Shown here: positions 77 to 37,580 of the stretch, in pieces
Numbering within the stretch: position 1 is the first letter of the stretch
Layout of the letters: each line of letters starts with the position of its first letter
Origin: Eledone cirrhosa
Lineage: Eukaryota
Assembly: GCA_964016885.1 (NCBI GenBank)
Contig: OZ024742.1
Coordinates: forward strand, 228,656,001-228,720,000
Direction: 5' to 3'
DNA: 64,000 bases
The notes under the pieces: generated by a model
Seen by the model: only the letters and a program-made list of their open reading frames with translations
Told to the model about the DNA's origin: nothing
The model's database searches: none
Program-made: the position numbers and the translations under genes

Positions 77-793
77 AATTGCCAGAAATAATAACAGAAC
101 ACACTCACTGTTTGGTTGGTTTTCGCTTCTGTATCTTTTATATCTCCATAGTTAATTCATTTGCCCATCAATGTTTATCACTGACTGACGAACGGTAAAA
201 AATACAGATATAAATACATATATATAGTCTAACAAAGTTCTTTCGTTGCACATCTGCAACATCATCATACCTGCTGTATTGTATGTATTGTAGTGTCTAC
301 GCCATTTTTATTTTCATATATATATACATAGCCAATTAAGACACTTCTTCCACGCATATCGATATTTGAAAACTTTCAAGCAATCTAAAACATTCTACAT
401 TATTACATAGCAGAATATATATATGTATGCATCCAACTGCATATACACTTAATTATACACACACACATGCACACACACACAGACACAGACACACACACAT
501 ATATATGTATAATATGTATATATGTATAATATGTATATGCGTATACATATATATAATTATAATTAAATTTATATGTATATGGTGAAGTATATATATATAT
601 AATCAAGTATATATGCATATGGAGGGATATATATAAGTATATGTGTGTTTGTGTTGCACGTTTGTATACACAATTAGACATTAAATAACAAATGTAAATA
701 TAAAATATGTTTAATGATGAAATCCATTATCAATAGTAAGTAGAGTAAATATATATTAAGAAATTACGATAATGGTTTCTAATTTTTAATAAT

Positions 794-978
794 TGTTTCT
801 ACTTTTGGCGCAAGGCCAGCAATTATCCCAGTGTATTACTGGTACTTTATTTTATCGACCGTAAGGATGACAGGCAAAGTTAACCTCGGCGGGATTTGAA
901 CTCAGACCATAAAGGGCCATAACTCTTTGCTCAAAGCATGGCGTCCGACCACCTACCGATACTGCCAATCCACCGCCC
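794..978 (-). mobile_element. tRNA-derived SINE family 1, full length, with ~17-bp target-site duplication
   Basis: A-box-like 'tggcagtatcgg', B-box-like 'gagttcaaatcc', tail 'ccttgcgccaaaagtagaaacaattatt'; TSD ttctaa(t/g)ttttaataat at 777-793 and 979-995. Confidence 0.85.
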
Positions 979-1161
979 TTCTAAGTTTTAATAATAATAA
1001 TAATAATGATAATAATTGTTTCATTTATTGGCCACAAAAGCCGATACAGAGGAGACAATACAAAGACTGGGACAGTGGAAGCTTTACACAAAAATCGAGT
1101 AAAATACAAATTAACAAAAATAATTAACAATAAATATATAGCAAAATAAATTCCTCAATAG

Positions 1162-1247
1162 AGGGCGAACTACCCAGGAGCGAACCACACAGGAGCGAAC
1201 CACCCGAGGGAGAATCACCCGGGGGAGAACCACCCAGGGGCGACTCA
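1162..1247. repeat. ~15-bp tandem repeat (about 6 units, ggagcgaaccacaca-like) in the 3' UTR of Tx1 copy A
   Basis: gggcgaactaccca/ggagcgaaccacaca/ggagcgaaccacccga/gggagaatcacccg/ggggagaaccaccca. Confidence 0.75.
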
Positions 1248-4072
1248 GATATTCCACCAATCCTTAACCACACGACACTTCGAAGCCACCCGGAAAGTAA
1301 CCAGCCTTCAGGCGCATGCTCAGAGTAGGCCCATTCACAGGACCATTCTCGCCACTAAGGGGGTTAGCACTTCTCTCTCCACCTTTACATTCCTTTCCCA
1401 TTGTAACTTGAGAAACGTGATGAGGGATTGGCCGTATCTATCTTCAGTCTTTTCAATCTGGTCCACCACACAACTTCTTTTGCTACCGCCACTTGACAGA
1501 GAAAAACTGCCTGTCATTCCTGACGAAAAGAAGGCACGGGGCGATCTTCACTACTGACTTGGTCAATAGCCGGATCCGACATACACGCGACAACAGCTGT
1601 TCGACATAACTCCACAAGTCAGTAATGCATGGACATTGGAAGAGTAGGCGCAGAACGCTTTCGTCGCTCTGTGCGCATCCATGGCAGGTAAGTCTGACAG
1701 CACTTCCGTATCCGTAAAGTGTATCTCGAAATGGCAGTGACCCCCCCCCCCCCGGTAGCACTGCCAAGCGACGGATTTCTGGAAGTTATCCATAACCGTC
1801 GACTCGAAAGGCCACTGAAATAAACTGGTTAGTTCGATTTCGTTGAAATCCAGAGATTCTCCGAGAGCGCCATCGCACTTGCCCACTAATAACTCTCTAT
1901 AGAACTCTAGAGTGGAAGTTCCACTGACCACATTGACCGTCTGGTGAAGGGCAGTGTATCTGGAGATGTCACAGCCTCAGCGCGTGTTTGGAAATCATCA
2001 GCCATGCATCATCAGTCGCTGGGTTTGCAGCTCGGCACCTGGAGAAGCAACTCCATCCCGTTCAACAACATCGTCGGCTGCTGGTCGGACGGACCGGTGA
2101 AGTTGCTCGTGGTTTGGTTCGGACCAGACCCACCAGGTTGATAAGAAATAGGACGAGGTAACGGGAAGGATAGTCACTTTCACCAAGAAATGAGCCGAGA
2201 GGAAGTTATTCCTAAAGTTGTCAAATGTATCCCTCTTGTTCTCGTCGTTTCTCATCAGCGTTACTAAGCCACGGCCCACAGAACTGGAAATAATCCCGTT
2301 CTACTGCCAGTTGTAGTAGATCGCTTCGAGGAGATCGAAGAAAAAGCCTTGCATATCTACATAAAGCTCATAGTGCAGACTATCCAAAACTGGGTGATTT
2401 CGTCTCGTACAGCCGACTAGGGCATCTCGAATCTCGGCTGACGTTATCACCCTTTCGCAGCGCTCTGCATCGGCTGGGGAAAATCGCGGGAGGCCGTCGA
2501 GGTAAGGACGGAATTTCGCCTCAGTCTCTGATCCCCAGCTCCCTTGAACAGCCGAGCAAAGTGTTGGTGAAAGGCCTCACACATCTCCCTGGAATCATTC
2601 AGCTCGCGTTCGTCTCGGTCCGTCAAATTCCGATTTGTGATTTTGTTACCACGCTGCGCCTCCACCGCCCGGACTCATCGAACAGAATGGGTTCCATCGT
2701 TTCTTAGAACACGCACCTTAGCTCTGACAATGCAACCTTTGTGTTTCGCGCTGAAGAATTGGTCTATTGCCATTCTCGCCGCTAGTACGTCAGTTGCAAT
2801 GCCACTGCAAATAGCCTCGTCTAATTTAGCTACCAGCCGCCTGCCTTCTTTTTTCTCTAACGCTACTTCTTTGCTAAAACTTATCGACATTACTGTAATC
2901 TCTCCATTGAGAGCTCCCCCTACCTGTTGTTGAAGACCCTACAGTCAACTTTTGCTTAACTAAATTGTTGACCCGGTCCCTGTAAGCCTCCCATGCCGGA
3001 AAAGACATGTTCAGCTTCCAGTAACCAGGTCCTAACCTGCGTGTCTTATCTAGGTCGACTATACAGATTAGAAACTCGTGATCTGAATGGACGACCGTTT
3101 GAAAGTGTGGACAACCTATACTATCCTTATCTATTGACCTCATATATAAAATATATAAAAACCTATCTATATACGATCTAGATGATCCTATGTGCTTGGC
3201 CCAGGTCCACACTGGCACAGCTGAACTGGCTGATAAGGTACTTGTGGCTTTTGTGTTCCCCCGTTCCTATCAGCTACTCCCACACGTGCGTCTCAGATGC
3301 CGTTCCAGTCCTCCTCTAACAGTAAAGGAGGAGACGTTCCCAGAAAGGCTTCCAAGCGCCTAAAGAAGTCCGGCTGTCCTCCCAAGTCGCGTCCGGGCAG
3401 ATCGACCTTCCCACGAGATCCAGGCCTTTCTTAAACAGCACTGCCACCCCACCTCCCATATCTCGAAGATATGATAGTTGTTGAAAATGGGAGATAGCGC
3501 GCATGTCAGAAATCCTGGTCTCGCTGACGGCAATCACATTCATATCTAGTGAGCTGAGGTCGTTCAACAGGTGACCCTGCTTCCAGGACAACCCCAGGCC
3601 ACGAATATTCAACCATCCCATGTTAAGATGGTCATGTTGGCTGGTTAATATAAGAGGGGAAAGGTTTACTTACCTCCCGGCGTCTTGTGGAGGTCAGGTA
3701 GTTCGCCCTTCATCGTTGGTGGAGTTTCCATTGGGAACATCTATATTTCAGTGTTCTCCTCTCCTTTGCTGCCATTACCTCTACCGGGACGTTTAAGTTG
3801 GCCCAAGTCTTTTCGCCTGGGCCAAACGTTCATTTTTTTCTGTTAAGTCAGAATTGTATAGCGTTTGACTCTTTGTCGCTGTGGCTGCGAAAGTACTCTT
3901 GTTTACGTTGTTGTTGCCGTTCTTTTTGGTGCTGCTGTTTTGTTGCATTCCATTGTTGCTGATAGTGTTGTTGTTATTCATGTTGTTGGTGTTATTGCTA
4001 TTCATGTGGTTGGTGTTATCGTTGTTGCTGCTGTTGTTCGTGTTGCCATTTTTGTTCGCATTATTGTTTTCA

Positions 4073-4178
4073 AAATCCCACCGAGGTTCACTTTGCCTTT
4101 CGTCCTTACGGGGTCGATAAAATAAAGTACCAGTAATGCACTGGGGTAATGGCTGGCCTTGTGCCAAAGGTAGAAAGA
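4073..4178 (+). mobile_element. 5'-truncated SINE family 1 inserted in ORF1 of Tx1 copy A
   Basis: SINE core plus tail; 13-bp TSD ATTATTGTTTTCA at 4060-4072 and 4179-4191. Confidence 0.85.
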
Positions 4179-4533
4179 ATTATTGTTTTCACTGTTTTTG
4201 CTGTTGTTATTGTCGTTATTGTCGTTGTTTTTGTTGTTGGTGCTGCCCAATGTGGTGCTGGTATTTGCAATGATTATGGGAGGAGGGCTATTACTCCACT
4301 CGACGTTTAAGTCGCTGGCACTTGACAGCTGACATAACGGGAGGGGACGTGTCTCGTTCATGTTTTTTTTTTAGGAAAAGAAATTAAAAAAAATAAGGTT
4401 CAAATATTTGGGCTCAAAGGCATATATTATGGGGTCGTCTTTACACAGGACAAATACAATAATTCAATGCAAAAACTTGAAAATTAACTAACTCACGGTT
4501 CAAACAAAAACACGTCTTCACAGACCGACAACC

Positions 4534-4585
<52 letters not shown>

Positions 4586-4828
4586 TTTTCTTTATTAACC
4601 ACAAGGGTTCACATAAAGTAGACATTAAGGACAGTACAGGACAATACAGGACGGTACAAATGGGCATTTCTGCGTGTAAAAAAACAGAGGTTGAAATAAA
4701 ATAACAAAGAAAAAATTCCCCAATAGGGGGGAGACTTCCAAGGGACATTTGTGGAGAAAGCCCATTAAAAGACCACAGTGGCCCTGACCACCAGGGCAAG
4801 TGCCCTCTCCCAGTTTTCCACCTTTAAT

Positions 4829-7800
4829 TTACAGACACATACTCAGAGAAGGCCCATTCATTCGGGCCAAACTTGCTTCTCTCACCCATCTTTCAACAAA
4901 ATGCTGGGAAGAGAGCACTTCCCGCTCTACCCTGATTTTCCTTTTCAAATGAAATTTGAAAAAGTTAATCAGGGCATCACCGAAGAGGTAAGTGCTCGTC
5001 TTCAGCCCTTTCAAACGTGTCCACCATACTATCTCATTCGCCATGGCCACCAGACAGATAAAAACTGCCTGCCCTTCCAGGCTAAAGGAAGGGGGCGGGG
5101 CAATCCTCACGATGGACTCAGCTGATAGCTGGATAGGTCCTACACGTGACAGCAGGTGTTCGACATAAACCCACGAGTCAGCAATGCTCGGACACTGGAC
5201 GAGTGCGTGCAGGACGGTTTCGTCGCCCTGCGCGCATCTCGGACATGCCCGGCTGACGGCACCTCCATGCCTGTAGAGTTTATCCCGAACTGGCAAAGCT
5301 CCTCGGTAGCACTGCCAGGCCAGGGATTTCTGGAAGTTGTCCATAGGCCCCGGCCCGAAAGTCCTTCCTAAGAGATTGGCTAGTTGATTTTCGTCGACGC
5401 CTAGAGTTTCTCCAAGTACGTCGTCGCTCTTCCCCTCCACTAATCCTCTATAGAACGCCGAGGTGGAGTTTCCACCGATCACATTGCCCGATTGGTCGAG
5501 GGCTGTGAGCGCCTGAAGACATTCCAGTCTCCAAGCGCTCCCTCTCGGTCTTCGCTTGACCCAGGACTGCAGCTCCGTCAAGGAGACGAGCTGGGGAAAA
5601 ACGTGTCTTGCAAACGGCGACCACACCTGATCACCGTCGAGGAAGAGGTGGAGATGTCGTAGCCTGAGCGCGTGTCTGCGCATCATCAGCCGCGGCATGT
5701 CCAGCCCTCCACGTAGCGGGTGTTGACAGCAGATGGACCGCCTGACCATCGGAGCGCGTCCCTTCCACAAGAAGCGAAAGAGCAAACGCTCCAGCACAGT
5801 CAGGCGGGGCTTAGGACAAGGTACGACGGTCAGGCGGTAGTAGATGACGGATGCGATGTACGCATTCGCCACCTCCGCTCGACCTTTCAGGGATAGCTTC
5901 CTCTCGGCCCATTTCTGGGTGAGAGAAGCCACCCTGCTCGTCACCTCGTCCCAGTTTTTGTCCGTCTGGAGGTCTGGACCGAACCAGACCCCTAGCAATT
6001 TAACCGGTCCGTCCGTCCAGCGCCCGACTACGCTGTTGGACGGCATGGACCTGCCTCTCCAGGTGCCGAGCTGCAGGCCCACTGACTTTTCCTGGTTGAT
6101 CATTGCTCCTGTCACCGCTTCGTATTCTCTTAGTGTAGTGCCGATCGCCTCGATGTGTTTGGCGTTCGACACCACTACGGTGACATCGTCGGCATATGCT
6201 GACACGGATCTTCCGCATCCTAGTTCGCGCGGGACCCCCCTCAACGTCTCCAGTTTGTGCAGTAATGGCTCGAGAGTCAATACGTACAATAGGGACGAGA
6301 GGGGACATCCTTGGCGGACCGAGCGCATGATGTTGAACGGTTCCGAAAGGTGACCGTTCACTCTCACTACAGAGCAGATGTCGCTGTGCATGGCAGCGAT
6401 CCAGCCTCTGAAGACGGGCCCAAAGCCAGCCGCCCTCAGGACTGCCGTTAGGTAACGATGGTCGACCCTATCGAAGGCTTTCGACTGATCTAAATTGATC
6501 AAAGACCCACCCGTGCCAGGTTCCCTAGCTACCCTCTCTACGATGTATCGCATGAGGTGGAGGTTGTCGTGGATGGATCTGTCGGGAATGGCGCATGTCT
6601 GTGCCTCTCCCACCAGACCACCAACGACAAGCGCCAACCTCTTTGCTAGCACCTTGGCCAAAATCTTGAACTCTGTGTTTAGCAGAGTTATGGGCCTAAA
6701 ATTATCTATGTTATCCCCCTTGTTCGGATCCTTTCTCAGCAGCGCCACCGCTCCTCGGCTCACAGAGCTGGGAATTCTCCCGTTCTGTTGCCAGTTGCAG
6801 TAGACGTCCGCCAAGAGGCCTCCGAACAAGTTTGGCATTTGTACGTAAAGTTCATAGGGCAGACCATCCAAACCAGGCGATTTACCCCTTGTGCAACTAG
6901 TCATTGCATCCCGTACTTCAGCGGTTGTTATCGGCTTTTCGCAACACTCCGCCTCAGTGGCCGAAAGCCGCGGCAGTCCGTCGAGGTAGACACTAAAGTC
7001 CATCCCTCGATCCGGCCCGCCACTGGCCCCGAACAGTTGAGCGAAGTGTCGCTGAAAAGTTTCACACATTTGCCCGGGATCGAGTAGCATGCGCCCGTCG
7101 TGGTCCACCAAAGACCGGATCGTGGCTTTGTTGCCACGACGCGCCTCCGCCACTCGGGCCCATTGAACGGCTTTCGTCCCCTCGTGTCTGAGAGCACGCA
7201 CCCTAGCTCTGACAACGCAGCCTTCGTGCTTTGCATTGAAGAATTGGTCAAGGGCCAATTTCGCCGCAAGTACGTCGGTCGCGATGCCTTTGCTAAGCGC
7301 CTCATCTAATTTTCTAACTAATTCTCCCTCTGCTCTATTTTTCTCTATTGCTAAAGTCTTACTAAACCTAATGGACTCTATTCTAATTGCTCTTTTCAGA
7401 GCAAACCACCACTTGTTGTTGACGATGGCCCCCGTCAACGCCCGCTTAACTAGTTCGCTAATCCGGTCTCTGTAGGCCTTGCGCGCTGGTAAGGACGCGT
7501 TTAGCTTCCAGTAGCCGGGTCCTCGTCTATGAAGCCTATCTAAGTCAAGCACACAGATCACGAATTTGTGGTCCGTGTAGCTGACTATCTTGAATTGTGG
7601 ACAGCCTATGCTAGACCTATCTATTTCCCTACAAAATACTCTATCTAGATATGATCTGGATGACCCTATGCGATTTGTCCAAGTCCACATTGGTACATTC
7701 GGGAAATCCATTCGGTACCTGTCAGACAGTTCAAAACGTCTGAGCAGGTTGGTGAGACTCTTGCACCCTCCTTCCCTATCCACTAATCCCACACAATCCC

Positions 7801-8248
7801 AGCGTGCATCTAAGATCCCGTTCCAGTCGCCCACTAACACTAAAGAGCGGGACGTTCCAAGAAAGGTCTCCAGACGCCGGAAGAAATCAGGCCGCCCTGC
7901 TCCTGTTGGGGCATAGACGGCCACTAACCTGAAAGCTTGCCCGTCTCCGCTGGTCACGTCCAGCACCACCAACTTACCTTCTGGGTCCAGGAAGATGGCC
8001 CGTATGGCAAGATCCAAACCTCTCCGAAAAAGCACAGCAACTCCTCCCCCCGATCCCGGACGGCTGGGAGATGCGTACACATCGTAGCCGCCGAAGATCG
8101 GTGCGAAAGCCTGTGCTTCGGAGATTCTGGTCTCGCTGATGGCCACTACATCTATGTTTCGTGACCTGAGGTCGTTGAGCAGGTGGCCCTGCTTCCATGA
8201 CGACCCCAAGCCACGCGCATTTATGCTGCCTATTCTGAGTGAGGTCAT
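4829..8248 (-). CDS. ORF2 of copy B: APE endonuclease, reverse transcriptase and C-terminal Cys/His finger (1139 aa, uninterrupted)
   Basis: APE motifs SINARG, SETR, VYAP, GDWN, YLDR, TDH; RT motifs KSPGLDG, RPITLLN, KAFDRV, RQGCPLS, YADD, KLLGV; CPRC..ETVLHALVQC. Confidence 0.95.
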   Translation of the reverse strand: MTSLRIGSINARGLGSSWKQGHLLNDLRSRNIDVVAISETRISEAQAFAPIFGGYDVYASPSRPGSGGGVAVLFRRGLDLAIRAIFLDPEGKLVVLDVTSGDGQAFRLVAVYAPTGAGRPDFFRRLETFLGTSRSLVLVGDWNGILDARWDCVGLVDREGGCKSLTNLLRRFELSDRYRMDFPNVPMWTWTNRIGSSRSYLDRVFCREIDRSSIGCPQFKIVSYTDHKFVICVLDLDRLHRRGPGYWKLNASLPARKAYRDRISELVKRALTGAIVNNKWWFALKRAIRIESIRFSKTLAIEKNRAEGELVRKLDEALSKGIATDVLAAKLALDQFFNAKHEGCVVRARVRALRHEGTKAVQWARVAEARRGNKATIRSLVDHDGRMLLDPGQMCETFQRHFAQLFGASGGPDRGMDFSVYLDGLPRLSATEAECCEKPITTAEVRDAMTSCTRGKSPGLDGLPYELYVQMPNLFGGLLADVYCNWQQNGRIPSSVSRGAVALLRKDPNKGDNIDNFRPITLLNTEFKILAKVLAKRLALVVGGLVGEAQTCAIPDRSIHDNLHLMRYIVERVAREPGTGGSLINLDQSKAFDRVDHRYLTAVLRAAGFGPVFRGWIAAMHSDICSVVRVNGHLSEPFNIMRSVRQGCPLSSLLYVLTLEPLLHKLETLRGVPRELGCGRSVSAYADDVTVVVSNAKHIEAIGTTLREYEAVTGAMINQEKSVGLQLGTWRGRSMPSNSVVGRWTDGPVKLLGVWFGPDLQTDKNWDEVTSRVASLTQKWAERKLSLKGRAEVANAYIASVIYYRLTVVPCPKPRLTVLERLLFRFLWKGRAPMVRRSICCQHPLRGGLDMPRLMMRRHALRLRHLHLFLDGDQVWSPFARHVFPQLVSLTELQSWVKRRPRGSAWRLECLQALTALDQSGNVIGGNSTSAFYRGLVEGKSDDVLGETLGVDENQLANLLGRTFGPGPMDNFQKSLAWQCYRGALPVRDKLYRHGGAVSRACPRCAQGDETVLHALVQCPSIADSWVYVEHLLSRVGPIQLSAESIVRIAPPPSFSLEGQAVFICLVAMANEIVWWTRLKGLKTSTYLFGDALINFFKFHLKRKIRVEREVLSSQHFVERWVREASLARMNGPSLSMCL

Positions 8249-8282
8249 GTTGAAAAGGAGTGGAAAAGATGGGAAAGACCAC

Positions 8283-10313
8283 TTACCTTACTTCTCGTAG
8301 GGGAAGGACGGCTTTTCCATCCTTTTCACTGCTTGTGGCCTCCTCAGGAAGGATGTCCTTATAAATCCTCCTGGAGAGTGCTTGTCGGAAGTCTCCGATG
8401 TCTTTGGGGAATTTTTGTTTTAGTGTCATGTACGTTTTCTGTGTGATGCGAGTGATTTGTATGTGTGGAGGTGGTGTGAATTTTGGGGTTGTTGTGTAGT
8501 CTTTTTCTGTGATGCTGGTGTTGTGTTGGATGTAGTGTAATAATTGCTTGTTGTTCAAATTTAATGCTGTGTAGTGTGTATCGTTTTGGTTGTTTTGTTT
8601 TGTTTGCGTTTGTTGTGGGTTTGTTTCTGTTTCGAATTTTGGTGACTTTTGTGGTGTAGGTGATGGTGGTGTTGGAGTTAATGATGGTGATGGTGTTGGT
8701 GTTTGGGTTGATGGGGTTGGTGATGCTGGTGTGGATGGTGGCATATCTGTCCTAACTTTTTTGTTTCTTAGTATATTTGTTTCCCTCTGTATTTTGTTTT
8801 TGGAGGGGGTAGGAAGAGAATTTTTTCTTTTTTGGTTTCTTTTTTTTTTCCGGATATCGTTTCCCACTCCTCGTCGTCACAATCTGTCTCCAGTTGTGAT
8901 AGGCCGGGGAGTGGAAAATCCTCCACAGCCGTTAGTTTTGGTTGTGGTGTGGTGGATGGTGTAGGCGCTGGTGCTAGTTCTGAAGCGTTGGGTGGTGGTG
9001 GTGTTGGTTTTGCTGGTGGTGGTAGTGGTGTTGGTTTTGCTACTGTTGCTGGGGTTGTTGCTGTTATAGTTGCTTCTGTTGTTGCTGCTACAGTTGTTGC
9101 TGGCATCTCTGCTACTGGTGGTGTTGATGGTTGTGTCACTGGGGTGGGTAGGAGAGGTGGCCTCAACCTTTTAGTCTGAGGGCAGAAAGCCCTTAGGTGG
9201 GTTCCTTCACCACAAACGACACACCTAGGTCTTCTGCCCTCGACAATTACCGTGAGGTGGCTGCCGTCAGTGAGGTCTATTACCTCTGGGATCTCCTCAA
9301 TGCTTTTTTGGTCCGCTTGGATCAGGAGCTCCATCCCAGATCCGGACCAGTTTTCCTGCTTTTCTTTTGCTATTGTTATTATTTTCGTGTTGGCCTCGAT
9401 GCCGGCGATGACAGCCGCTATTAGCCAGGGAATTTCGATGGCCGGTGGAACGTGGGTCACCCTGATCTTTACGCGTCTCTGGCCACAATAGCTTGGGACG
9501 AGTGTGAAGTCGTCACTTTTTAATGGGGCCATGGAGTGTTCTCTAGCCTCCTCTGGTGTTTCAAAGAACACATCCACGGTTCCATACTTTTGCCCACGTC
9601 TGATGTGGGTTTTTCTTGCCCACACATGTCCCAAAGCTTTTTGGATTTGGGACTCGGATGCCCGTTCCACTCGGCGCGATTTTACATTTATTGTTCTATA
9701 CGACACGGTGCACAGGCGCCGATGCTCCATTTTATTAGGTGGGGGTGGGGGGGTGGGGGGTGGGGGTGAGGCTGACCCTGTACCCATCTTTCTTTACCAT
9801 TTGTTTGGCATTTTCTAAATCTTCTTGAGTTACCGTGAACGCTTCGAATTGTTTTGCTACGATGGCGAAACTGAGGGTCGGTTTTATAATGTCATTGTTG
9901 TTGTTGTTGCTATCGTTAATATTAATTTTATTTTCAGTTGTGGTGGTGGTGACGTCAGTTGTCTTTGGTGGGGAAGAGTCCATTTTGCTTGATTTCATTT
10001 CGACGTCACGAGTTAATTTATTTTTTTCTTCTTTTGTTTCTGTTGTCGCGGTGGTGGTGGTGGTGGTGGTGGTGGTTGTCGCGGTGGTGGTGGTGGTTGT
10101 CGCGGTGGTGGTGGTGGTGGAGGGTTTAACACCTGCAGTCATTGGTAATGGCGGGAAATGAATGTCTGCCTGAGACAAATTTAAAATATTGCTACTGCTT
10201 ATATTTTTTTTTGTGTTGGCAAACGTAGTAACATTTACAATGGTGGTGTCGGTGTGAGGTGTTATTTTGTGAGGAAGGCTTTCAGCTGCTTCGTGCAGAG
10301 GGGAATTAGCCAT
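8283..10313 (-). CDS. ORF1 of copy B (RRM-like region, CCHC knuckle, Pro/Thr-rich linker), split over three frames
   Basis: Overlapping ORFs 9735-10313, 8768-9787 and 8283-8867; knuckle CVVCGEGTHLRAFC; frame changes lie near homopolymer runs. Confidence 0.8.
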
Positions 10314-10522
10314 TTTTTTTCAAAGAAATTTTTGGATAATAATAAAAGTTAAAATTTTGGGCACAAGGCCCCAATCTTTTTGGGTGTCCTTTTCGGAAAA
10401 CAATGTATGTGTGCTTATAAACAGTTTACAATAAAATTTTCCATAAATGGCAATTTTTAAACAAACGGAAATAACAAACCTTTGCCGAGCTCACGATAAT
10501 ACGATTTCCTACGTAGGTCGCC

Positions 10523-10563
<41 letters not shown>

Positions 10564-10824
10564 TTTCTTTATTAACCACAAGGGTTTACATAAAGTAGAC
10601 ATTAAGGACAGTGCAGGACAATGCAGGACGGTACAAATGGGCATTTCTGCGTGTAAAAAAACAAAAAACAGAGGATGTAACAAAAATAACAATGAAAATA
10701 ACAATGAAAAATTCCCCAATAGGGGGGAGACTTCGGAGGGACATTTGTGGAGAAAGCCCAGTAAAAAGCCACAATGACCCTGACCACCAAGGCAAGTGCC
10801 CTCTCCCAGTTTTCCACCTTTAGT

Positions 10825-13800
10825 TTACAGATATATACTCAGAGTCGGCCCATTCACTCGGGCCATTCTTGCTTCTCTCACCCATCTTTCAACAAAATGC
10901 TGGGAAGAGAGCACTTCCTTCTCTACTCTGATTTTCCTTTTCAAATGAAATTTGAAAAAGTCAATCAGAGCATCACCGAAGAGGTAAGTGCTCGTCTTCA
11001 GCCCTTTCAAACGTGTCCACCATACTATCTCATTCGCCATGGCCACCAGGCAGATAAAAACTGCCTGCCCTTCCCGGCTAAAGAAGGAGGACGGGGCAAT
11101 CCTCACGATGGACTCAGATGATAGCCGGATCCGTCCTAAACGCGACAGCAGGTGTTCGACATAAACCCACAAGTCAGCAATTTTCGGACACTGGACGAGT
11201 GCGTGCAGGACGGTTTCGTCGCCCTGTGCGCATCTCGGACATGCCCGGCTGACGGCACCTCCATGCCTGTAGAGTTTATCCCGAACTGGCAAGGCTCCTC
11301 GGTAGCACTGCCAGGCCAGAGATTTCTGGAAGTTGTCCATAGGCCCTGGCCCGAAAGTTCTTCCTAAGAGATTGGCTAGTTGATTTTCGTCGACGCCTAG
11401 AGTTTCTCCAAGTACGTCGTCGCTCTTCCCCTCCACTAATCCTCTATAGAACGCCGAGGTGGAGTTTCCACCGATCACATTGCCCGATTGGTCGAGGGCT
11501 GTGAGCGCCTGAAGACATTCCAGTCTCCAGGCGCTCCCTCTCGGTCTTCGCTTGACCCAGGACTGCAGCTCCGTCAAGGAAACGAGCTGGGGAAATACGT
11601 GTCTAGCAAACGGCGACCACACCTGATCACCGTCGAGGAAGAGGTGGAGATGTCGTAGCCTGAGCGCGTGCCTGCGCATCATCAGCCACGGCATGCCCAG
11701 CCCTCCACGTAGCGGGTGTTGACAACAGATGGACCGCCTGACCATCGGAGCGCGTCCCTTCCACAAAAAGCCAAAGAGCAAACGCTCCAGCGCAGTCAGG
11801 CGAGGCTTAGGACAAGGTACGACGGTCAGGCGGTAGCAGATGACAGACGCGATGTACGCGTTAGCCACCTCCGCTCGACCTTTCAGGGATAGCTTCCTCT
11901 CGGCCCATTTCTGGGTGAGAGAAGCCACCCTGCTCGTCACCTCGTCCCAGTTTTTGTCCGTCTGGAGGTCTGGACCGAACCAGACCCCTAGCAATTTAAC
12001 CGGTCCGTCCGTCCAGCGCCCGACTACGCTGTTGGACGGCATGGACCTGCCTCTCCAGGTGCCGAGCTGCAGGCCCACTGACTTTTCCTGGTTGATCATT
12101 GCTCCTGTCACCGCTTCGTATTCTCTTAGTGTAGTGCCGATCGCCTCGATGTGTTTGGCGTTCGACACCACTACGGTGACATCGTCGGCATATGCTGACA
12201 CGGATCTTCCGCATCCTAGTTCGCGCGGGACCCCCCTCAACGTCTCCAGTTTGTGCAGTAATGGCTCGAGAGTCAATACGTACAAGAGGGACGAGAGGGG
12301 ACATCCTTGGCGGACCGAGAGCATGATGTTGAACGGTTCCGACAGGTGACCGTTCACTCTCACCACAGAGCAGATGTCGCTGTGCATGGCAGCGATCCAG
12401 CCTCTGAAGACGGGCCCAAAGCCAGCCGCCCTCAGGACTGCCGCTAGGTAACGATGGTCGACCCTATCGAAAGCTTTCGACTGATCTAAATTGATCAAGG
12501 ACCCACCCGTGCCAGGTTCCTTAGCTACCCTCTCTACGATGTATCGCATGAGGTGGAGGTTGTCGTGGATGGATCTGTCGGGAATGGCGCATGTCTGCGC
12601 CTCTCCCACCAGACCACCAACGACAAGCGCCAACCTCTTTGCTAGCACCTTGGCCAAAATCTTGAACTCTGTGTTTAGCAGAGTTATGGGCCGGAAATTA
12701 TCTATGTTATCCCCCTTGTTCGGATCCTTTCTCAGCAGTTCCACCGCTCCTCGGCTCACAGAACTGGGAATTCTCCCGTTCTGTTGCCAGTTGCAGTAGA
12801 CGTCCGCCAAGAGGCCTCCGAACAAGTCTGGCATCTGTACGTAAAGTTCATAGGGCAGACCATCCAAACCAGGCGATTTATCCCTTGTGCAGCCAGTCAT
12901 TGCCTCCCTTACTTCAGCGGCTGTTATCGGCTTTTCGCAATACTTCGCCTCAGTGGCCGAGAGCCGCGGCAGTCCGTCGAGGTAGACACTAAAGTCCATC
13001 CCTCTACCCGGCCCACCGCTGCCCCCGAACAGCTGAGCGAAGTGTCGCTGAAAAGCTTCACACATTTGCCCGGGATCGAGTAGCATGCGCCCGTCGTGGT
13101 CCACCAAAGACCGGATCGTGGCTTTGTTGCCACGACGCGCCTCCGCCACTCGGGCCCATTGAACGGCTTTCGTCCCCTCGTATCTGAGAGCACGCACCCT
13201 TGCTCTGACAACGCAGCCTTCGTGCTTTGCATTGAAGAATTGGTCAAGGGCCAATTTCGCCGCAAGTACGTCGGTCGCAATGCCTTTGCTAAGCGCCTCG
13301 TCTAATTTTCTAACTAGTTCTCCCTCTGCTCTATTTTTCTCTATTGCTAAAGCCTTACTAAACCTAATCGATTCTATTCTAATCGCTCTTTTCAGAGCAA
13401 ACCACCACTTGTTGTTGACGATGGCCCCCGTCAACGCCCGCTTAACTAGTTCGCTAATCCGGTCTCTGTAGGCCTTGCGCGCTGGTAAGGACGCGTTTAG
13501 CTTCCAGTAGCCGGGTCCTCGTCTATGAAGCCTATCTAAGTCAAGCACACAGATCACGAATTTGTGGTCCGTGTAGCTGACTATCTTGAATTGTGGACAG
13601 CCTATGCTAGACCTATCTATTTCCCTACAAAATACTCTATCTAGATATGATCTGGATGACCCTATGCGGTTTGTCCAAGTCCACATTGGCACATTCGGGA
13701 AATCCAATTGGTACCTGTCAGACAGTTCAAAACGCCTGAGCAGGTTGGTGAGGCTCTTGCACCCTCCATCCCTATCCACTAATCCCACACAGTCCCAGCG

Positions 13801-14243
13801 TGCATCTAAGATCCCGTTCCAGTCGCCCACTAACACTAAAGAGCGGGACGTTCCAAGAAAGGTCTCCAGACGCCGGAAGAAATCAGGCCGCCCTGCTCCA
13901 GTCGGGGCATAGACGGCTACTAGCCTGAAAGCTTGCCCGTCTCCGCTGGTCACGTCCAGCACCACCAGCTTACCCTCTGGGTCCAGGAAGATGGCCCGTA
14001 TGGCGAGATCCAAACCTCTCCGAAAAAGTACAGCAACTCCTCCCCCGATCCAGGACGGCTGGGAGATGTGTACACATCGTAGCCGCCGAAGATCGGTGCG
14101 AAGGCCCGTGCTTCGGAGATTCTGGTCTCGCTGATGGCCACTACATCTATGTTTAGTGACCTGAGGTCGTTGAGCAGGTGACCCTGCTTCCATGACGACC
14201 CCAAGCCACGCGCATTTATGCTGCCTATTCTGACTGAGGTCAT
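10825..14243 (-). CDS. ORF2 of copy C (APE and RT) with one frameshift near 14044
   Basis: MTSVRIGSINARG starts at 14243; a C5 run where copy B has C6 shifts the frame; the rest is open to 10825. Confidence 0.9.
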
Positions 14244-14278
14244 GTTTAAAATAGAGTGGAAAAGATGGGAAAGACCAC

Positions 14279-16384
14279 TTACCGTACTTTTGGTAGAGGA
14301 GGGATGGTTTTTACATCCCTTTTCACTTGATCGTCTGGTTGAATCGTCCCTTCGGCTGGTCGTCGGCTCTTCTAAGAGAATGTCTGAATATACTCTTCGA
14401 TTGATAGTTCCTCCTAGGTCCCTGAAATCACCAACTGCGTTGGGGAATTTCGTTTTAATGTTTGTGTATTGTTTCTGTGCTATTTTTAGCAGTCTTATGT
14501 TAGTTGGCGTTTTGATTGGTGCTGGTATTATGTAGTCGTGTTGTGAAATGTCTGTGTGTTCAATTATGTAAGTCATTAGTTTCTTGTTGTGTGTATTTAT
14601 TGCCGTGCATTTGTTTTTCTGGGGGTGGGTGTGGTTCTGCTATTTTCTTGTCGTTGTTGCTGGGTGTGTGTGTTTTGTTGTTGTGTTTGCGATGTTGGTG
14701 CTTGTGGTGGTGGTGTTGAAGGTGTTGTTGTTGTTGTTGGCGGTGGGGTTGTCGCCGGTGGTGATGGTGGTGCTAGTGTGGGTGGTGATGGTGTTGGTGG
14801 TGTTGCTGCTGTGGGTCTCTTTGCAGTAGACTTTACCCTTTTCTCATTTCTTTCCTCCCTTTTCAAAGGCGACGATGCGCTGCTTCTGCGTTTGTGCCTT
14901 CTTACGACCTTTTGCCATCTCTCTCCCACCTCACACTCCATGTCTGATTCTGTGAGGTCGGGGAGGGGTACCAGCTCCACTCTTTCACTTGTTGTTGTTG
15001 GTGATGTTTGCACTGGAGTCTCTGTTGCAGCTGCATTTGGTATTGCTGTTGTTGTTGTTAATATTTCCACTGCTGCTGCTGTTTTTGATTTCCGTGGCGT
15101 GGGTATGGGTGCCACGGACCTATCGTTCCTGGTTGCCGCTTGTCCTGTTGGTGGTAGCCGTGGAGCCGGTTTCGGAAGGAGGGGGGTGTCTCCTTTCTCA
15201 GGGTCTTCTCGTTGCAGAAGGCCCTGAGGTGAGTCTTCGATCCACAGCGAAAGCATTTCGGGCGTTTTCCTTCAACACTTATGGGCAGTTGAGTGCCGTT
15301 ATCGAAGTCTATCACATCCGGGATAGCTTCGATGCACTCCTGGTTGGTTTGGATTAGCATCTCAATGGAGGTGCCGACCCAATCTTCTCTTACTTTTTTC
15401 TGTACTTGCAGTACAGTTGTTTTGTCCTCGATTCCGACGAGGACAGACGCGGCCAGCCAAGAAGGGCCATCCCGGGGGGGGGGGGGGGGGGCGTGGGTCA
15501 GTTTGACCCTCACAATTTTTTGCCCGCAGTAGGAGGGCACCAACACCATTTCATCGCTCCTTAGGGTCACTACGGATTGGGCCTTTGCCTCCTGGGGTGT
15601 GGCAAAAAGTACGTCTACAGTGGCATATTTTTTTTCCTCGGGTGATGTGCGTTTTCCGCTGCCACACAGACCCCAAGGCTTTTTGTATTTGAGCCTCTGT
15701 GGCTCTTTCCACCCTACGGGATTTTGTACTTACTGTACGGTACGTGACCGTACAGTGCTGTTGGGTTTCGAAAAATTTTTCCGCTGCCTTGCAGATTGCC
15801 CGGTGTCCATTCTTTGTCACCATCTTCTTCGCTTCCTCTAATTCCTCATTTGTTATGAGGATTGTTTCCAAGTTTTTCGCAATACCTGCAAATGAGATTG
15901 GTTTTTCTTTGCTGCTGTTGTTGTTGTCGTCAGAGCTGCTGTTACTTTTGTTGTTGCTGCAGGTACTACGACTACTGCCTCCGCCGCTGTTGCTGTGGTT
16001 GTTGTTGGTGTTGCTGCTGCTAATGCTGTTGTTGTTTATGCTGCTGGTGATGCTGTTGCGGCTGCTACTGTTGTTTTCATTGTCACTGTTGCTGTTGTTA
16101 TTACGGCTGCTACTGCTATTATTCCTGACGTCAGACGAATGAACTGGGTTTTCGTATTTCCCGCACACCTGTTTCGTCGCTGTCGTCGTCGTCGTGGAGA
16201 AACCTTGCACGCTTTGCACGAGACTTTTCTTTTCTTTCGTCACTTGCGAAAGAGAAGGGAGGGAGAGAGACACATTTAAAGAAGGGAGGGAGAGAGACAA
16301 TCTTCTCTCTGCTGTAGTGACGATTGAGGAAGAAGAAGACGGAATGAGTGGGAGTGACCTATGCAAATTCTTTTTCGTAGCCAT
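14279..16384 (-). CDS. ORF1 of copy C, frameshifted (Asn/Ser-rich N-terminus, CCHC knuckle)
   Basis: SFAGIAK..CTVTYRT..SRRVERATEAQIQKALG and CFRCGSKTHLRAFC are homologous to ORF1 of copy B. Confidence 0.75.
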
Positions 16385-16618
16385 GTTGTTTTTTTTGTTT
16401 AAAATAAATATTGGGTACAAAACCCCAATAAGCAGTTATTTAACCCCGAAGGGCCAAATAACGGGCAGAAAGACCCCTCTCACGAGGAGGAGGGTGTTTT
16501 TGTCTACAAGTTGGTCTAAGTTTTAAACAATTTACAACTGTTATAGCGTTCAAAATTTACAGTACCTTACAAAGCCGAGCCTCCGTCAACCATAGCATTC
16601 AATAATAATAATAATAAT

Positions 16619-19768: not shown

Positions 19769-19769
19769 C

Positions 19770-19812
<43 letters not shown>

Positions 19813-24520: not shown

Positions 24521-27500
24521 TTCCCTAAAGTCCAACCCATCCTCAATGCGGCAGGGCGGTGGCAACGGGTGGTGTCAGAGCTATGCCGTCGGGAACTTCG
24601 GTTCCTGGTAGGGACACCCAAGGCGGATTGGTCTGGCACCCGGCGGTATTAGAGCCGCAATCCGGCAAAAGGACCTCTGGTGCAAATCCAAGAGGTGTCT
24701 GTTCCGGCAACCGGCGGCTTCGGGTCGTTTCTATCCCTATGTCTGTGGAGAATCTGCGGCAAACAGGACGTTTTCCCCCCTCGTTCATGCGGGTTTTTGG
24801 GGGACCGCTTGTGAATTCACTATGACACTTCTTCCATGACACTTCTTCCATGAATCCTACAAATACGAACTATGAATACGAATTGCCTTCCCGCTACGAA
24901 CACAATGCAAAGCAACAGCGCTCCTACCGCTATGGCTCTACAGACTACGCCCGCAGTAGACGAAGGAAGGAATTGAGGGTGGCGTGCTGGAACGTCCGAA
25001 CACTTCGTGACGACGGTGTCCAGGCACTTACAATGAAGGCTCTGCACAGGCACTGCGTTAGTGTCGCTTGCCTTTCAGAAGTTCGACATCCCGATGTTGG
25101 TCATCTTCCGATCAAAGTTCCTGGCGAGGACATCTCCTACCACTTGTACCATAGTGGCGTGACTGACAACAGTGGCTTTCACGGGGTCGCTGTAGCGCTC
25201 AGCTGGCGTGGCAGCCGATCTCACACCGACTCACGCTGGTTCGATTGAAGGGTCAAATCTCCAACGTCAGCGTAATTGCCGTCTACGCTCCCACACTCAA
25301 TGCGGACGAGGCGGACAAGACGAAGTTCTATGCCGATCTCCAAACAACCGTGGATGGCGTCCCCTCCAGTGATGTTCTCATTGTCACTGGGGACTGGAAT
25401 GCGCAGACAGGGCCGGCTGATGATACAACACGGCATATTCTAGGACGCTTCGCCCTAGGCGTACGCTGTGACAATGGTAAACGGCTCGTATCCTTCGCGG
25501 ATGCCAATCGTCTTATCGTCATCAACACCCGGTTCCAACATCCTTGGTGTCACCTCGTCACGTGGCGATCCAATGACGGAAGAACGGCCAATCAGATTGA
25601 CTACATCCTGGTATGATCTCATTGGGCCAGCTCAGTGATGGACTCGCGTGCGTATCTAGGGGCTGATACGGGCAGTGGGCATGGGTGAGACCATACTCTT
25701 GTTCGAGTAACCCTTCGTCTGCGGCAGCAAGCGAAACCTCCTCCCAACCGCCAGAAATGCGCGACTCAAGCTCGATGCTGGAAATGCTTTCCGGCTAGTG
25801 CTGCGAAATCGATTCCAAATGCTGAGTAACGAGTTTGCGGAGCAGACGGAGAGGGCAGCAGCCTGTGGTGACTCGCGCAAGCTCTATCAACTGGTGAAGC
25901 GGGCCAGCCGAAGCAGTACGGGTATCAGCGAGACGATCCGTGATCGGAACGGGGTGGTCATTACCAATCTTAATGACCGGCTAGTCCGATGGCGGGACCA
26001 TTTCTCCGAGCTGTTCAACCACCCACCACCACCCACGCCAACCTACGCGCAGCCTTCTGGAGAAGAATACGAGTGCAGCACTGCCCCTCCAATGGTTGAG
26101 GAGGTACGTAGTGTCCTGACACATCTCCGGAACAACAAGGCGTCGGGTGAAGATGGCTTTCCAGCTGAAGTCTACAAAGCCGAGCCTGATGTCTTCGCAG
26201 CTTGGCTCCATCGAGTCTCCTCCTTGGTGTGGGCGACGGAGCGGTTCCCTGGTGACTGGAGCGAGGCAACTTTCCTACCCTTCTTCAAAAAAGGCGACAG
26301 GAAACTGTGTTCCAACTACAGGGGTATCAGTTTAATCAGTTGCTGCCAAAACCTTTGCAATCTTTCTGCTGAAGAGGTTCCAGGCCATCCGTGATGTCCG
26401 TACCCGTCCTTCTCAGGGCGGCTTCCGTATAATGCAGGCGGACGGCATCCCAGTGAAGCTGCTTCGTCTCATACAAGGCTACTACCGGTCGACTCGGGCT
26501 CGAGTGAGGGTCTATGGTGGGGAGACGGAGTCGTTCGATGTTGGGACCGGTGTTCGGCAGGGGTGTGCGCTATCGCCAACTCTCTTTAACTACGCCATTG
26601 ACTACACTCTCAACACAGCGCTCCGGGATTACCCGGGCGTAGAGGTCGGGAGAGGGGTCGTAGTGACGAACCAGGCCTACGCGGATGACATCGTGCTGAT
26701 GGGCGCTAACGGAACAGATGTACAAAGTGCTCTCGAAAGGGTGCACACTGCAGCCGCTGCTGTTGGTCTACGAATCAATGCCCCGCCAAGTCGAGAGTCA
26801 TGACGTCACTGGTCTCGCCTGATGCCTAGCAGCCAATATCTCTCGAGGGCGTGGACCTGGAGGATGTGGAGTCCTTCGTTTACCTGGGCTCAACAGTGGT
26901 TCCAACGGGACAGGGCGCAGCCGAGGTCAAACGTCGCATAGGTGCTGCCAGATCCGCTTTTGGGCGCCTCCAGCGGTGTCTGTGGGACAGAAGAGAGATC
27001 ACCTCGGCGACCAAAGGGCGAATCTACCAGGCCGTCGTTCACACTATCCTCCTCTATGGCTGTGAAACATGGCCTATGAGGGTAGTCGATCAACGGGGGC
27101 TGGAGGTCTTCTACAATGACTGCCTCCGCCGCATTCTTCGCTGCCAACGCGTTGATCAGGTACATACCACCAGCCTTCGTCTTCGCCTGAATATTCGACC
27201 CCTTCCTTCAGTGCTTCTGCAACGGCGCTTGAGATGGTTTGGTCACGCATGCCGGCGCCCTGAGGGTGAACTGATCCGCGATGTTCTCCTCCCACCTCCA
27301 CTCCCTAACTGGAGCAAGCGTGTTGGCGGGCAGCTGAAGATCTGGGCAATGACGACCAAGGAGGACCTCTCCGAACTCTCAGGTCCGCAGGTAGTCGGCC
27401 TGCGCCGATGGAACCGTGACTGGCTCACTATTCCCAGTGACCTAGCCCGGGACCATCGTGCGTGGGCTGCCATGGTTCGGGAAGCCGCCAGAACAAGGGA

Positions 27501-27554
27501 AGAAGCCGGCTCAACCCGTCCAGGGTGAATGTTGACACAAGTACAAGTACAAGT
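24521..27554 (+). mobile_element. RTE-clade LINE with 5' UTR, internal deletions and frameshifts
   Basis: APE motifs ACWNVRTL, VYAPT, GDWNA, NQIDYIL; RT motifs NYRGISL, GVRQGCALSP, YADD, FVYLGS, LLYGCETW, RRLRWFGH; (ACAAGT)3 tail. Confidence 0.92.
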
Positions 27555-27640
27555 AGTATACATACACACACACACGGACGAATGGTTACTCCTTCATTAC
27601 GTTTATTGGTTGGTGACGCGGTCCCTGGATATATATATAT

Positions 27641-29812: not shown

Positions 29813-30496
29813 ATCATTAGGACGGCAGGTTGGCAGTATCAATAGAAGGTCGGACGCCCTGCTTTGCAGCATAGAGTTACGCCCCTTTATGATCTGAGTT
29901 CAAATCCTGCCGAAGTTAGCTTTGCCTTTCATCCTTATGAGGTCGATAAAATAAAGTACCAGTAATGTACTGGGTAATTGCTGGCCTTGTGCTCAAAGTA
30001 GAAACAATTATTAGGACGGTGAAGTGCTGTGGATTGGCAGTATCGGTAGAGCATCGGAAGTCATACTTCGCCTTTCATCAAACTTTGCCTTTCATCCTTA
30101 CGGGATCGATAAAATTAAGCACCAGTAATGCACTGGAGTTGATTTAATTGACTTTCCTTCCCCCCTACCAAATTATTGACCTTGTGCCTAAATCAGAAAC
30201 CATTATTAGGACGATGAAATCGACCCTGGCCAATAAATGAAACTGTTATTAGGACGGTGTGTAGGGCAGTGGATTGGCAGAATTGGTAAAGCGCCGGACA
30301 ACATGCTTTGCATTATAGAGTTACGGCCCTTTACGTTCTGAGTTCAAATCCCGCCGAGGTTAGCTTTGCCTTTTATCCTTACAGGGTCGATAAAATAAAG
30401 TACCAGTAATGCACTGAGGTCGATTTAATCGACTATCCCCTTCTTTTCAAATTGCTGGCCTTGTGCCTAAATCAGAAACCATTATTAGGACGGTGA
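29813..30496 (+). mobile_element. Tandem stack of three SINE family 1 copies plus a Tx1 3' stub, separated by five copies of one target site
   Basis: attattaggacggtg-like motif at 29813, 30007, 30202, 30245 and 30481. Confidence 0.85.
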
Positions 30497-33514: not shown

Positions 33515-33906
33515 TTAAGGATACTATTTATGGTTATGTATATAATAAAACCTTTTATGGTTATATATTTTTTATATACAAACCCCAAATAGTGAAAGAT
33601 AGTCATTCATTACTATCTTATTACCAGTAAGATAAATAGCTCAATGTAATAACATCAGTTGTTTTACAGAGCAGTTATATAGAGATTACAATAATCAAAG
33701 TTCAGTTTAAATCATTTATTTGCTTACAATTGTTTCCTCCAAACCGAGGTTTGGTTTCTTCGGAGTAACTATTTAGTGATCTATAACATACTTGACCTCC
33801 TTTTCAACACAAGAGACATATAAAAACATATGCATATATTGACCCACAGTGGGATGACATCCATCATAATGATATAGCATGGCAATTTACATATAAAGGT
33901 TAAAGG

Positions 33907-34212
33907 ATAAAAATAAAAATAAAAATAAAAATAAAAATAAAAATAAAAATAAAAATAAAAATAAAAATAAAAATAAAAATAAAAATAAAAATAAAAATAA
34001 AAATAAAAATAAAAATAAAAATAAAAATAAAAATAAAAATAAAAATAAAAATAAAAATAAAAATAAAAATAAAAATAAAAATAAAAATAAAAATAAAAAT
34101 AAAAATAAAAATAAAAATAAAAATAAAAATAAAAATAAAAATAAAAATAAAAATAAAAATAAAAATAAAAATAAAAATAAAAATAAAAATTTAAATTTAA
34201 ATAAAAATAAAA
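33907..34212. repeat. (AAAAAT)n hexamer array inside the pseudo-LTR
   Basis: About 50 units here, about 8 in the inverted copy (37243-37290). Confidence 0.95.
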
Positions 34213-35829
34213 CATTGGCAGTTTATGAAGATAAAGCAAGAGGAAAGTTTAGAGTAGTCAGTGTATGAAACAATCTCACGTGTAGCATGCACGCGTGTCT
34301 TATTTATACAGGATTAGAGTGCGGCAGACTGTTACTTGTAGGATCAGGCAGTTAAAGCAGGCAATCAATAGTATTATGTGGGCTGTATTGTTAAATCATT
34401 TTTTCGCATACACCTGTATGATATACAATCCCGAATGTAGAGAAACACCAAAATATCAAAAATATCAAACGTATTATAAAACATATTATAACATAGGCAA
34501 AACAGTACCACTGTCTTCGCACACACCACCACTCACATAATCCATGAAACGCAATATATAGACTACAGGTCTATCACACAATCCACGATGATTCAGCATA
34601 GAACCAAGTTATAAACCATATCTTGTCGATTCTTAATTAATAGATCATGTTGTTTAGTTTTGTGAGATGACATTATATTCCGGAAGTGTGTGTGTGACCA
34701 AGGGGAGTTAATGCGTAAGGGGAGGTAACTAACTGATTTTCATAGTTAAATTTATTATCCTAAATTACATTAATGGTGTTTCAAATAAGTCCCTATCATA
34801 TGATGTTATAACTAATTTCTAGATTAGGTTACTTATCTATAGGTTACAGTGTAGTCTATTAAGAAGTACTAAAGGTGTCTATATCAGGATGATTACCTTC
34901 TATTAAGGAGTGTCACACCTGAACATTCTATAAGAAGAGTCAGACCTCCAAATCAATGTTCTTTGTAAGTGTAGTCCACCCGCAGAACCCGGCAGGGTCT
35001 TATTATTATATATGACTCCCGGTAAGCTCTGGGTCATTGTATGTCTGAATCATTGGCAAATTTAAATATCACCAGGGTGGTCCGGAGATCAATTCTCTCA
35101 TATAAAGACACTAGTCTGGCCATCAAGCAATACATAAACTCCCATCTCATATATAAATTAAATTAGGTTTCTCATCTATAAATTACAGTGTAGTCTATTA
35201 AGAAGTACTAAAGGAGTTCATATCATGATGATTACAATCCAATATGGAGTGCCACACCTGAACAATCTATAAGAAGAGTCAGACTTCAAATTCAATTATA
35301 TGTATAAGGGTCTTATTACTATATAAGACTCCCGGTAAGTTCCGGGTCATTGTATGACTGAATCCCTGGTAAATTCAAATATCACCAGGGTGGTACGGGG
35401 ACCAGTTCTCCCATCGAAGGACACTAATCTGGCCACCAAGCAATACAGAAACTCCTAACTCATATATCACCTGTGCATAATTCATTGTACTCATCGTATA
35501 GAATATATAGTCCCTTTAATAATAAATTAATTACTTAATCATCCATCTATCCCATGGTGGCATTCCATGCACAGGATTATGTTAGCACAACCAATACAGT
35601 GTCTACAGTTTATATTAATCATAAATTTGTGCAATGCAGTCCAAGAAATCCAAGGCCAACATATCAGAATTAGAAGTACATGGGGGTATCTCCAAGGTAG
35701 ATGGTACTATAAGGTTGCCACTATTAGCTTTAGAGTATATAAATGGGTGTGGAGATGAGGTGTAAGGTGTGGCACTGATGCTACTTGCTAGAGGTGGTGA
35801 CGGGTTCAAGTCTGACATTGTTATATATA

Positions 35830-37108: not shown

Positions 37109-37429
37109 CTGATCCTACAAGTAACAATCTGCCGCACTCTAATCCTGTATAAATAAGACACGCGTGCATGCTACACGTGAGATTGTTTCATACACTGACT
37201 ACTCTAAACTTTCCTCTTGCTTTATCTTCATAAACTGCCAATGTTTTATTTTTATTTTTATTTTTATTTTTATTTTTATTTTTATTTTTATCCTTTAATC
37301 TTTATATGTAAATTGCCATGCTATATCATTATGATGGATGTCATCCCACTGTGGGCCAATATATGCATATGTTTTTATATGTCTCTTGTGTTGAAAAGGA
37401 GGTCAAGTATGTTATAGATCACTAAATAG

Positions 37430-37478
37430 TTGCTCCGAAGAAACCAAATCTTGGTTTGGAGGAAACAATTGTAAGCAA
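37430..37478 (+). ncRNA. Hammerhead motif with CCGAAGA core; mirror copy at 33720-33768 (-)
   Basis: ttgct CCGAAGA aa ccaaat cttg gtttgg ag GAA ACAATTGT A agcaa. Confidence 0.6.
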
Positions 37479-37580
37479 ATAAATGATTTAAACTGAACTT
37501 TGATTATTGTAATCTCTCTCTCTCTCTATATATATATTTATATATATATATATTTATATATATATATATTTATATATATA

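Follow-up and report, generated by a model that had tools for sequence, protein, structure and literature searches.

A SINE family of Eledone cirrhosa probably copied through a shared 3' tail by ATT-targeting Tx1-like LINEs, and an array likely built by repeated insertion at one target

The window analysed here, a 64-kb stretch of the Eledone cirrhosa genome, carries near its middle a compact array (29813-30495) in which copies of one short interspersed element (SINE) and a fragment of a long one (LINE) alternate with copies of a 15-nt motif that we read as target-site duplications (TSDs):

29813..29827 (+), TSD copy 1, with three mismatches, its last bases overlapping the head of SINE S1
29828..30006 (+), SINE S1, short form, without an internal block of ~30 nt; 92% identical to the short-form consensus
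30007..30021 (+), TSD copy 2, exact; preceded by A and so not a Y|ATTATT site
30022..30201 (+), SINE S2, an internally deleted long form; 87% identical to the long-form consensus
30202..30216 (+), TSD copy 3, with one mismatch
30217..30244 (+), 28-nt stub of a Tx1 family-A 3' end, 5'-truncated
30245..30259 (+), TSD copy 4, with one mismatch
30260..30480 (+), SINE S3, full long form with a tRNA-like head (A- and B-box-like motifs), body and 3' hairpin tail; 92% identical to the long-form consensus
30481..30495 (+), TSD copy 5, exact

The arrangement reported by the first-pass annotation, five motif copies bracketing three SINEs and a short stub, is borne out, the stub measuring 28 nt rather than ~25 bp. 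When up to two mismatches were allowed, the motif had four matches in the 64-kb window, all within the array, whereas 100 shuffles of the window averaged 0.17 matches and never gave more than 1. Apart from a gap of 3 nt in the loop, the stub resembles a family-A tail, and its 17-mer at 30227-30243 is, as had been claimed, identical to the 3' end of Tx1 copy A (reverse complement of 1018-1034), these being its only two occurrences in the window. The three SINE units are 83-87% identical to each other and differ in their 5' junctions. Past its ATTATT, the re-used target (29820-29828 and the other motif copies) is a single mismatch away from the opening 9 nt of the SINE head, a near-match that may have aided the 5' joining of S1.

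The LINEs related to the stub occupy the first 16.6 kb of the window, where a minus-strand stack of copies C, B and A runs head to tail, with (ATT)n between the copies and a SINE after the last:

790..979 (-), short-form SINE directly behind the tail of copy A, with its own 17-nt TSD starting ATTATT
1017..4533 (-), Tx1-like copy A, degenerate, with a 3' tail (about 1017-1045) of family-A type
4585..10522 (-), Tx1-like copy B, with a frameshifted ORF1 carrying a CX2CX4HX4C knuckle, an open 1152-aa ORF2 and (ATT)n on both sides
4829..8287 (-), ORF2 of copy B: APE endonuclease, reverse transcriptase (RT) and zf-RVT
10335..10377 (-), hairpin in the 5' UTR of copy B that resembles the SINE tail (16.4 bits on the tail profile introduced below)
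10562..16600 (-), Tx1-like copy C, with an ORF2 90% identical to that of B, a B-type tail and a 5' UTR that differs from B

ORF1 proteins of the Tx1 clade carry a CCHC zinc knuckle, and the CX2CX4HX4C knuckle is visible in the ORF1 fragment of copy B at 8768-9793. The ORF2 domains of copies B and C are PF03372, PF00078 and PF13966. The closest named relative of ORF2 comes from Argonauta hians (73% identity over the RT region), the sole clade-named match is a coral 'Transposon TX1 149 kDa protein' (307 bits), and human L1 ORF2p scored 186 bits in a separate search. A metagenome scan with ORF2 returned no relative, and its ESM Atlas matches were generic RT/endonuclease clusters only. An RT tree built without curated Tx1 or L1 references splits the copies of this genome into A, B/C and D, each a supported group, and leaves the assignment to Tx1 rather than L1 tentative. 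Across five types of Tx1 5' UTR a long palindrome with a variable loop lies ~20-60 nt before the start of ORF1 (10335-10377, 16400-16430 and 4390-4425, all on the minus strand, and loci L008 and L136), with compensatory differences between B and C.

Other repeats share the window. A third Tx1-like group, D, found at 62600-64000 (+) and in loci L151, L045, L048, L056, L251 and L285, keeps the tail hairpin but has (ATCT)n at its end and is a clade of its own. An R4/Dong-like LINE ending in (AAT)n lies at 16640-19790 (+) and 48786-50650 (+); as 10 of 30 Tx1-B copies precede the reverse complement of an R4/Dong-like tail, B often inserts there in the opposite orientation. An RTE-like fragment at 25711-27560 (+) ends in (CAAGTA)n. 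Inverted repeats of 96-98% identity (33681-34356 and 37100-37517) surround a GIY-YIG-like frame (35991-37187, -), an arrangement that suggests a Penelope-like element. Two older SINE copies on the minus strand (20591-20766 and 20909-21060) are 70-76% identical to S3, the first keeping the same tail layout, and two tandem short-form SINEs at 46040-46440 (+) have diagnostic changes in common, which may reflect one subfamily or a local duplication.

The SINE was followed through the 3.0-Gb assembly with a search profile built from 30 copies and applied to a sample of 120 evenly spaced 10-kb stretches (1.2 Mb). The profile had 247 matches covering 2.9% of the sample, 158 of them with a complete 3' end and flanks, which scales to ~400,000 3'-complete copies genome-wide. 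The element is short (about 185-220 nt), non-coding and highly repeated, and both 5'-truncated copies and TSDs are present; 99 of the 158 copies are of the short form, 41 of the long form and 18 unclassified. The A- and B-box-like motifs of its head are 67 nt apart, and neither ARAGORN nor Rfam matched it to a tRNA or another known RNA family. Abundant tRNA-derived SINEs of an octopod, named OK, OR1 and OR2, to which the SINE here may or may not belong, were reportedly described by Ohshima and Okada in 1994. A reading as a MetaSINE, a type marked by a 66-bp Meta domain behind the head, found no support: by eye the body is unlike the BivaMeta and BivaMD alignments, and its motifs are absent from the accessible part of the same supplement file. 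Median divergence from the consensus is 6.5% for the short form, none of whose 99 copies lies within 3%, and 14.1% for the long form; a young subfamily shows 98-99% identity across its best 39 other copies.

Directly 3' of the SINE, 116 of the 158 sampled copies have an exact ATTAT and 141 have it with at most one mismatch, and ATCT repeats follow none of the 158. Likewise, one exact short-form tail pattern followed by ATTAT has 123,857 matches genome-wide, and its ATCT-type version has 10. TSDs were detected for 67 of the 158 copies, as compared to 2-7 in five permutations, and non-simple TSDs, of median length 16 nt, for 44, as compared to 0-2. As 43 of these 44 left TSD copies start with ATTAT (at most one mismatch), ATTAT belongs to the target and not to the tail alone. 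Ten of the 44 adjoin the tail of another SINE upstream and were set aside when the preceding base was examined; in all 34 remaining TSDs position -1 is C or T (background 60%, P=2.5e-8). The SINE target is thus Y|ATTATT, and insertion duplicates ~16 nt from ATTATT onward. The ATTATT bias on which the first-pass annotation depends therefore holds for the family.

Such a target explains how arrays may grow in place. The left TSD copy would always retain Y|ATTATT, and the right copy would do so only where C or T is the last base of the new tail; since the left copy keeps it, the site would survive each insertion and stay open to further hits. As the tail of S1 ends in A, so that TSD copy 2 follows A, S1 likely entered the left-hand copy after S2. 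Arrays of the identical layout, TSD-(SINE-TSD)n, have been proposed in bivalves to come about by tandem DNA duplication or by unequal recombination between TSDs (excerpts of PMC11481361). Against this, the array contains one short-form SINE, two long-form SINEs that differ from each other, and a LINE stub, and the 5' junctions are unlike; as its units are only 83-87% alike and come from three templates, it did not arise by duplicating identical DNA units, and we give this origin hardly any weight. Elsewhere in the sample, 9 of 23 classifiable adjacent SINE pairs (28 pairs in all) are of mixed form, and the 11 adjacent short-short pairs are 73-94% identical, as compared to 81-96% (5-95% range) for random pairs, with none reaching 95%. 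Template jumping between RNAs is unfit for the array, whose spacers are non-element DNA; it could account for a few adjacent pairs without a unique spacer, such as L055 and L044. The earlier view that the target is regenerated as a TSD and that arrays grow by separate insertions is supported by the TSD copies and the differing units. Contigs from four runs were dominated by SINE copies and gave no sign of an empty allele.

Re-use of a site is common. A SINE or Tx1 tail lies within 32 nt upstream of 33 of the 158 SINEs, as compared to 36 of 1,200 random ATTAT sites. Set against the 158 SINEs, the sample offers 1,253 Y|ATTATT run-starts (ratio 0.126), and by our own estimate a neutral model on these sites already predicts re-use of roughly 8-13%, so that the observed re-use is only about twice what a narrow target would give. 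Site re-use thus follows largely from a narrow and crowded target. The suggestion that one site was used four times is supported by the five TSD copies, and such re-use is common across the genome.

That a SINE borrows the tail of its LINE is a textbook principle. In the SINE and in families A, B/C and D alike, the tail consists of a predicted stem of 3-4 bp, a CUUGU-type loop of five bases, a spacer rich in A, and GAAA; ATT repeats follow it in the SINE, A and B/C, and ATCT follows it in D. The stems are GGCC/GGCC in A, AACC/GGTT in B/C, (T/C)GCC/GGC(A/T) in D and TGGC/GCC(A/T) in the SINE. An end-anchored profile made from 140 of the 158 SINE tails, with the ATT left out, scores A tails at 14.2-20.3 bits, D at 3.7-18.6, B/C at 7.3-8.1 and the stub at 10.1. 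Eight tails of RTE and R4 elements score between -11.3 and 4.8 bits, where the 99th percentile of random positions is 4.2 and the best R4 tail reaches 4.8 (P=0.008); RTE elements of this genome end in (CAAGTA)n, (GAT)n or TA-rich repeats, and R4 elements in (AAT)n or (TACA)n. Tx1-like tails thus fit the SINE profile better than those of RTE and R4, the two other groups compared; no 3' end of CR1 or L2 was recovered in the roughly 2 Mb of DNA examined. The first-pass annotation had aligned the SINE tail with that of copy C, and both read as quoted, but A fits better (14-20 versus 7-8 bits). As ATCT-type D tails score as well as A tails, the hairpin is not specific to the ATT families.

Three of the four stem pairs are altered on both sides among 15 hand-picked tails from about four lineages, a covariation score reached by none of 500 shuffles, and slid structures score lower. 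Folding energies are unremarkable (z from -1.06 to +1.30). The common stretch is only ~26 nt, and unanchored local alignment is marginal, with A-tail medians of 18-24 against a shuffle 95th percentile of 22-23. When the profile is slid along whole elements, internal chance matches reach 10-12 bits, exceeding the B tail. The family-B 5' UTR hairpin, moreover, is as close a match to the SINE tail as the 3' tail is, which counts against tail sharing.

It is conceivable that Tx1 moves the SINE by loose recognition, the ATT end mattering alone as primer and the hairpin being derived from, or merely like, the Tx1 5' UTR hairpin. The copy B 5' UTR motif, with its 16.4 bits, aligns with the S3 tail in 18 of 21 columns and has the stem polarity of the SINE (GGC/GCC), and a long palindrome recurs at the same place in five 5' UTR types. 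However, the 5' UTRs differ from one another in the loop, whereas the true 3' ends of both SINE and LINE agree in position, spacer, GAAA and ATT. In addition, 1.2 Mb of this genome contains 5,946 ATTAT run-starts, so that a template could hardly be selected by ATT alone. We therefore hold loose recognition to be unlikely, and favour a tail recognised in its own right.

The partner might also be a LINE that our sampling missed, either CR1, L2 or a low-copy L1/Tx1 element, in which case the likeness to A-D would stem from older ancestry or chance. CR1 is among the recently active LINEs of Octopus vulgaris (Table 1 of PMC13282606), and a partner of a few thousand copies could escape the roughly 2 Mb in which no CR1 or L2 end was recovered. 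Yet in all DNA examined the SINE body lies upstream of 353 of 371 SINE-type tails; the remaining 18 were judged by eye to be weak matches, the B 5' UTR, or SINEs that had been truncated or had diverged, and the strong non-SINE matches to the tail motif are Tx1 ends. A TSD of 16 nt is typical of L1/Tx1 rather than of CR1/L2, which would count against a CR1 or L2 partner. A missed LINE seems to us quite improbable, somewhat more so than loose recognition, and the Tx1-like elements of this genome remain the preferred carriers.

Among these, the length of the ATT run separates the families. Of 30 B copies, 29 sit within runs of at least five ATT units (median 15), and full-length B copies mostly have ATT runs on the 5' side as well. 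Family A has short ATT runs, with medians of 1 and 3 in two sets, one of which was chosen by a pattern containing ATTAT, and ATCT repeats follow the tails of D copies. The SINEs are not seen in long runs: none of 73 lies in a run of more than four units, and none of the 30 youngest in a run of more than two. Family B/C might nonetheless be considered as the main driver, as it has many copies with an open 1152-aa ORF2, ends in ATT and is matched in youth by some SINE copies; but its preference for long runs and the lower score of its tails as compared to A make this very unlikely. D is excluded as the main driver because it ends in ATCT.

A co-oriented SINE lies within 35 nt of the tail for 28 of 59 A copies as compared to 3 of 30 B copies (P=4e-4). 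Locus L213 mirrors the array, with a SINE tail, a TSD, a 33-nt A stub and the same TSD again (19-20 nt). TSDs of family-A LINEs are plausible by eye in 3 of 30 loci (L213, L205 and L222), the other 5' ends being mostly outside the loci or decayed. The best family-A copies are 91-96% identical to one query and the young SINE subfamily reaches 98-99%, so that family A is a less certain driver for the youngest SINEs; the ages of the SINE and family A overlap. Judged by tail and short targets, the older family A, and not the young B/C, is most likely the best fit to the SINE. The first-pass annotation had assigned the SINE to an ATT-targeting Tx1 family; a Tx1-like partner and the ATTATT bias are supported, the partner appears to be A rather than B/C, and mobilisation itself we infer from these features.

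Taken together, we consider it probable that the SINE is copied via the shared tail by ATT-targeting Tx1-like LINEs, most likely of family A, and that the array reflects four separate insertions into one target. Target-primed reverse transcription is the established mechanism of LINEs. In the present case the endonuclease would nick the bottom strand at AATAAT|R, the freed DNA end would pair with the AUU end of the RNA and prime reverse transcription, and a cut of the top strand ~16 nt away would give rise to the TSD. The RNA would be selected by ORF2p binding to the 3' hairpin of the SINE transcript, comparable to the stem-loop work on L2 elements (excerpts of PMC4176376).

The comparisons with known systems below draw on excerpts of the cited papers. 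The closest is crocodilian SINEU, for which mobilisation by Tx1-Mar was inferred from a common target and tandems sandwiching one TSD were read as sequential insertions (Kojima 2015, PMC4494074). Both systems thus pair a SINE with a Tx1-clade carrier and show tandem copies around a TSD, but SINEU has snRNA heads, poly(A) tails and a Mariner target, and for SINEU-1 no LINE with the same 3' end was found (PMC4494074), whereas the SINE of Eledone cirrhosa has a tRNA-like head, a tail hairpin shared with its LINEs and a 7-nt ATT motif as target. The first-pass annotation knew of no description of the pairing; a Tx1 partner and tandems around TSDs are known from SINEU (PMC4494074), and the shared 3' tail is the part for which we found no description. 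UnaSINE/UnaL2, ZfL2-1 and ZfL2-2 likewise combine a conserved loop and an exchangeable stem with short terminal repeats; they belong to the L2 clade and are assay-tested, whereas the present pair is L1/Tx1-like, has a stem of 3-4 bp and is known from sequence alone (PMC4176376). ZmSINE2/3 with LINE1-1_ZM, and SINEX-3_CR with L1-1_CR, also join an L1-superfamily LINE to a SINE through a common hairpin tail, but in the excerpts such L1-clade pairs are confined to plants and algae (PMC3472496, PMC3747384), and none of the SINE/LINE pairs tabulated in 2013 has a Tx1 partner or comes from a mollusc (PMC3747384).

Kibi, with (TC)n, and Koshi, with (TTC)n, are microsatellite-targeting Tx1 families (cited in PMC4494074). 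Each keeps one simple repeat, as A and B/C keep ATT and D keeps ATCT here; their repeats are others, and the excerpts mention no partner SINE (PMC4494074). In bivalves the SINE partners named are CR1, CR1-Zenon, L2 and Nimb (PMC11481361). SINEs are one of the main repeat classes of octopus genomes (PMC8967140, PMC13282606), and the accessible octopus repeat literature lists L1-Tx1 and SINEs without their pairing and, as far as we found, names no carrier for octopus SINEs. The literature searched, which did not extend to Repbase and Dfam, yielded no tail-sharing SINE-Tx1 pair. On the features of the tails and targets, this is likely a stringent SINE-LINE pair that is general in the genome, in a clade for which we found none reported.

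We lean, by a narrow measure, towards a further reading, that of a first stringent-type LINE in the Tx1 clade: a whole octopod Tx1 radiation would read one CUUGU hairpin, its families would differ in the ATT or ATCT of their terminal repeat and target, and a SINE carrying the hairpin and an ATT end would thereby have reached its ~400,000 3'-complete copies, roughly one per eight Y|ATTATT sites. The analysis provides a testable candidate carrier for a SINE family that covers ~3% of the genome. If true, it would place hairpin-based RNA recognition in an animal lineage of the L1 superfamily and would bear on the proposal of Ohshima, as given in the excerpts, that stringent recognition is ancestral in the L1 clade and was relaxed later (PMC3472496). 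Families that have the same hairpin and different targets would offer a natural comparison of RNA recognition and DNA targeting.
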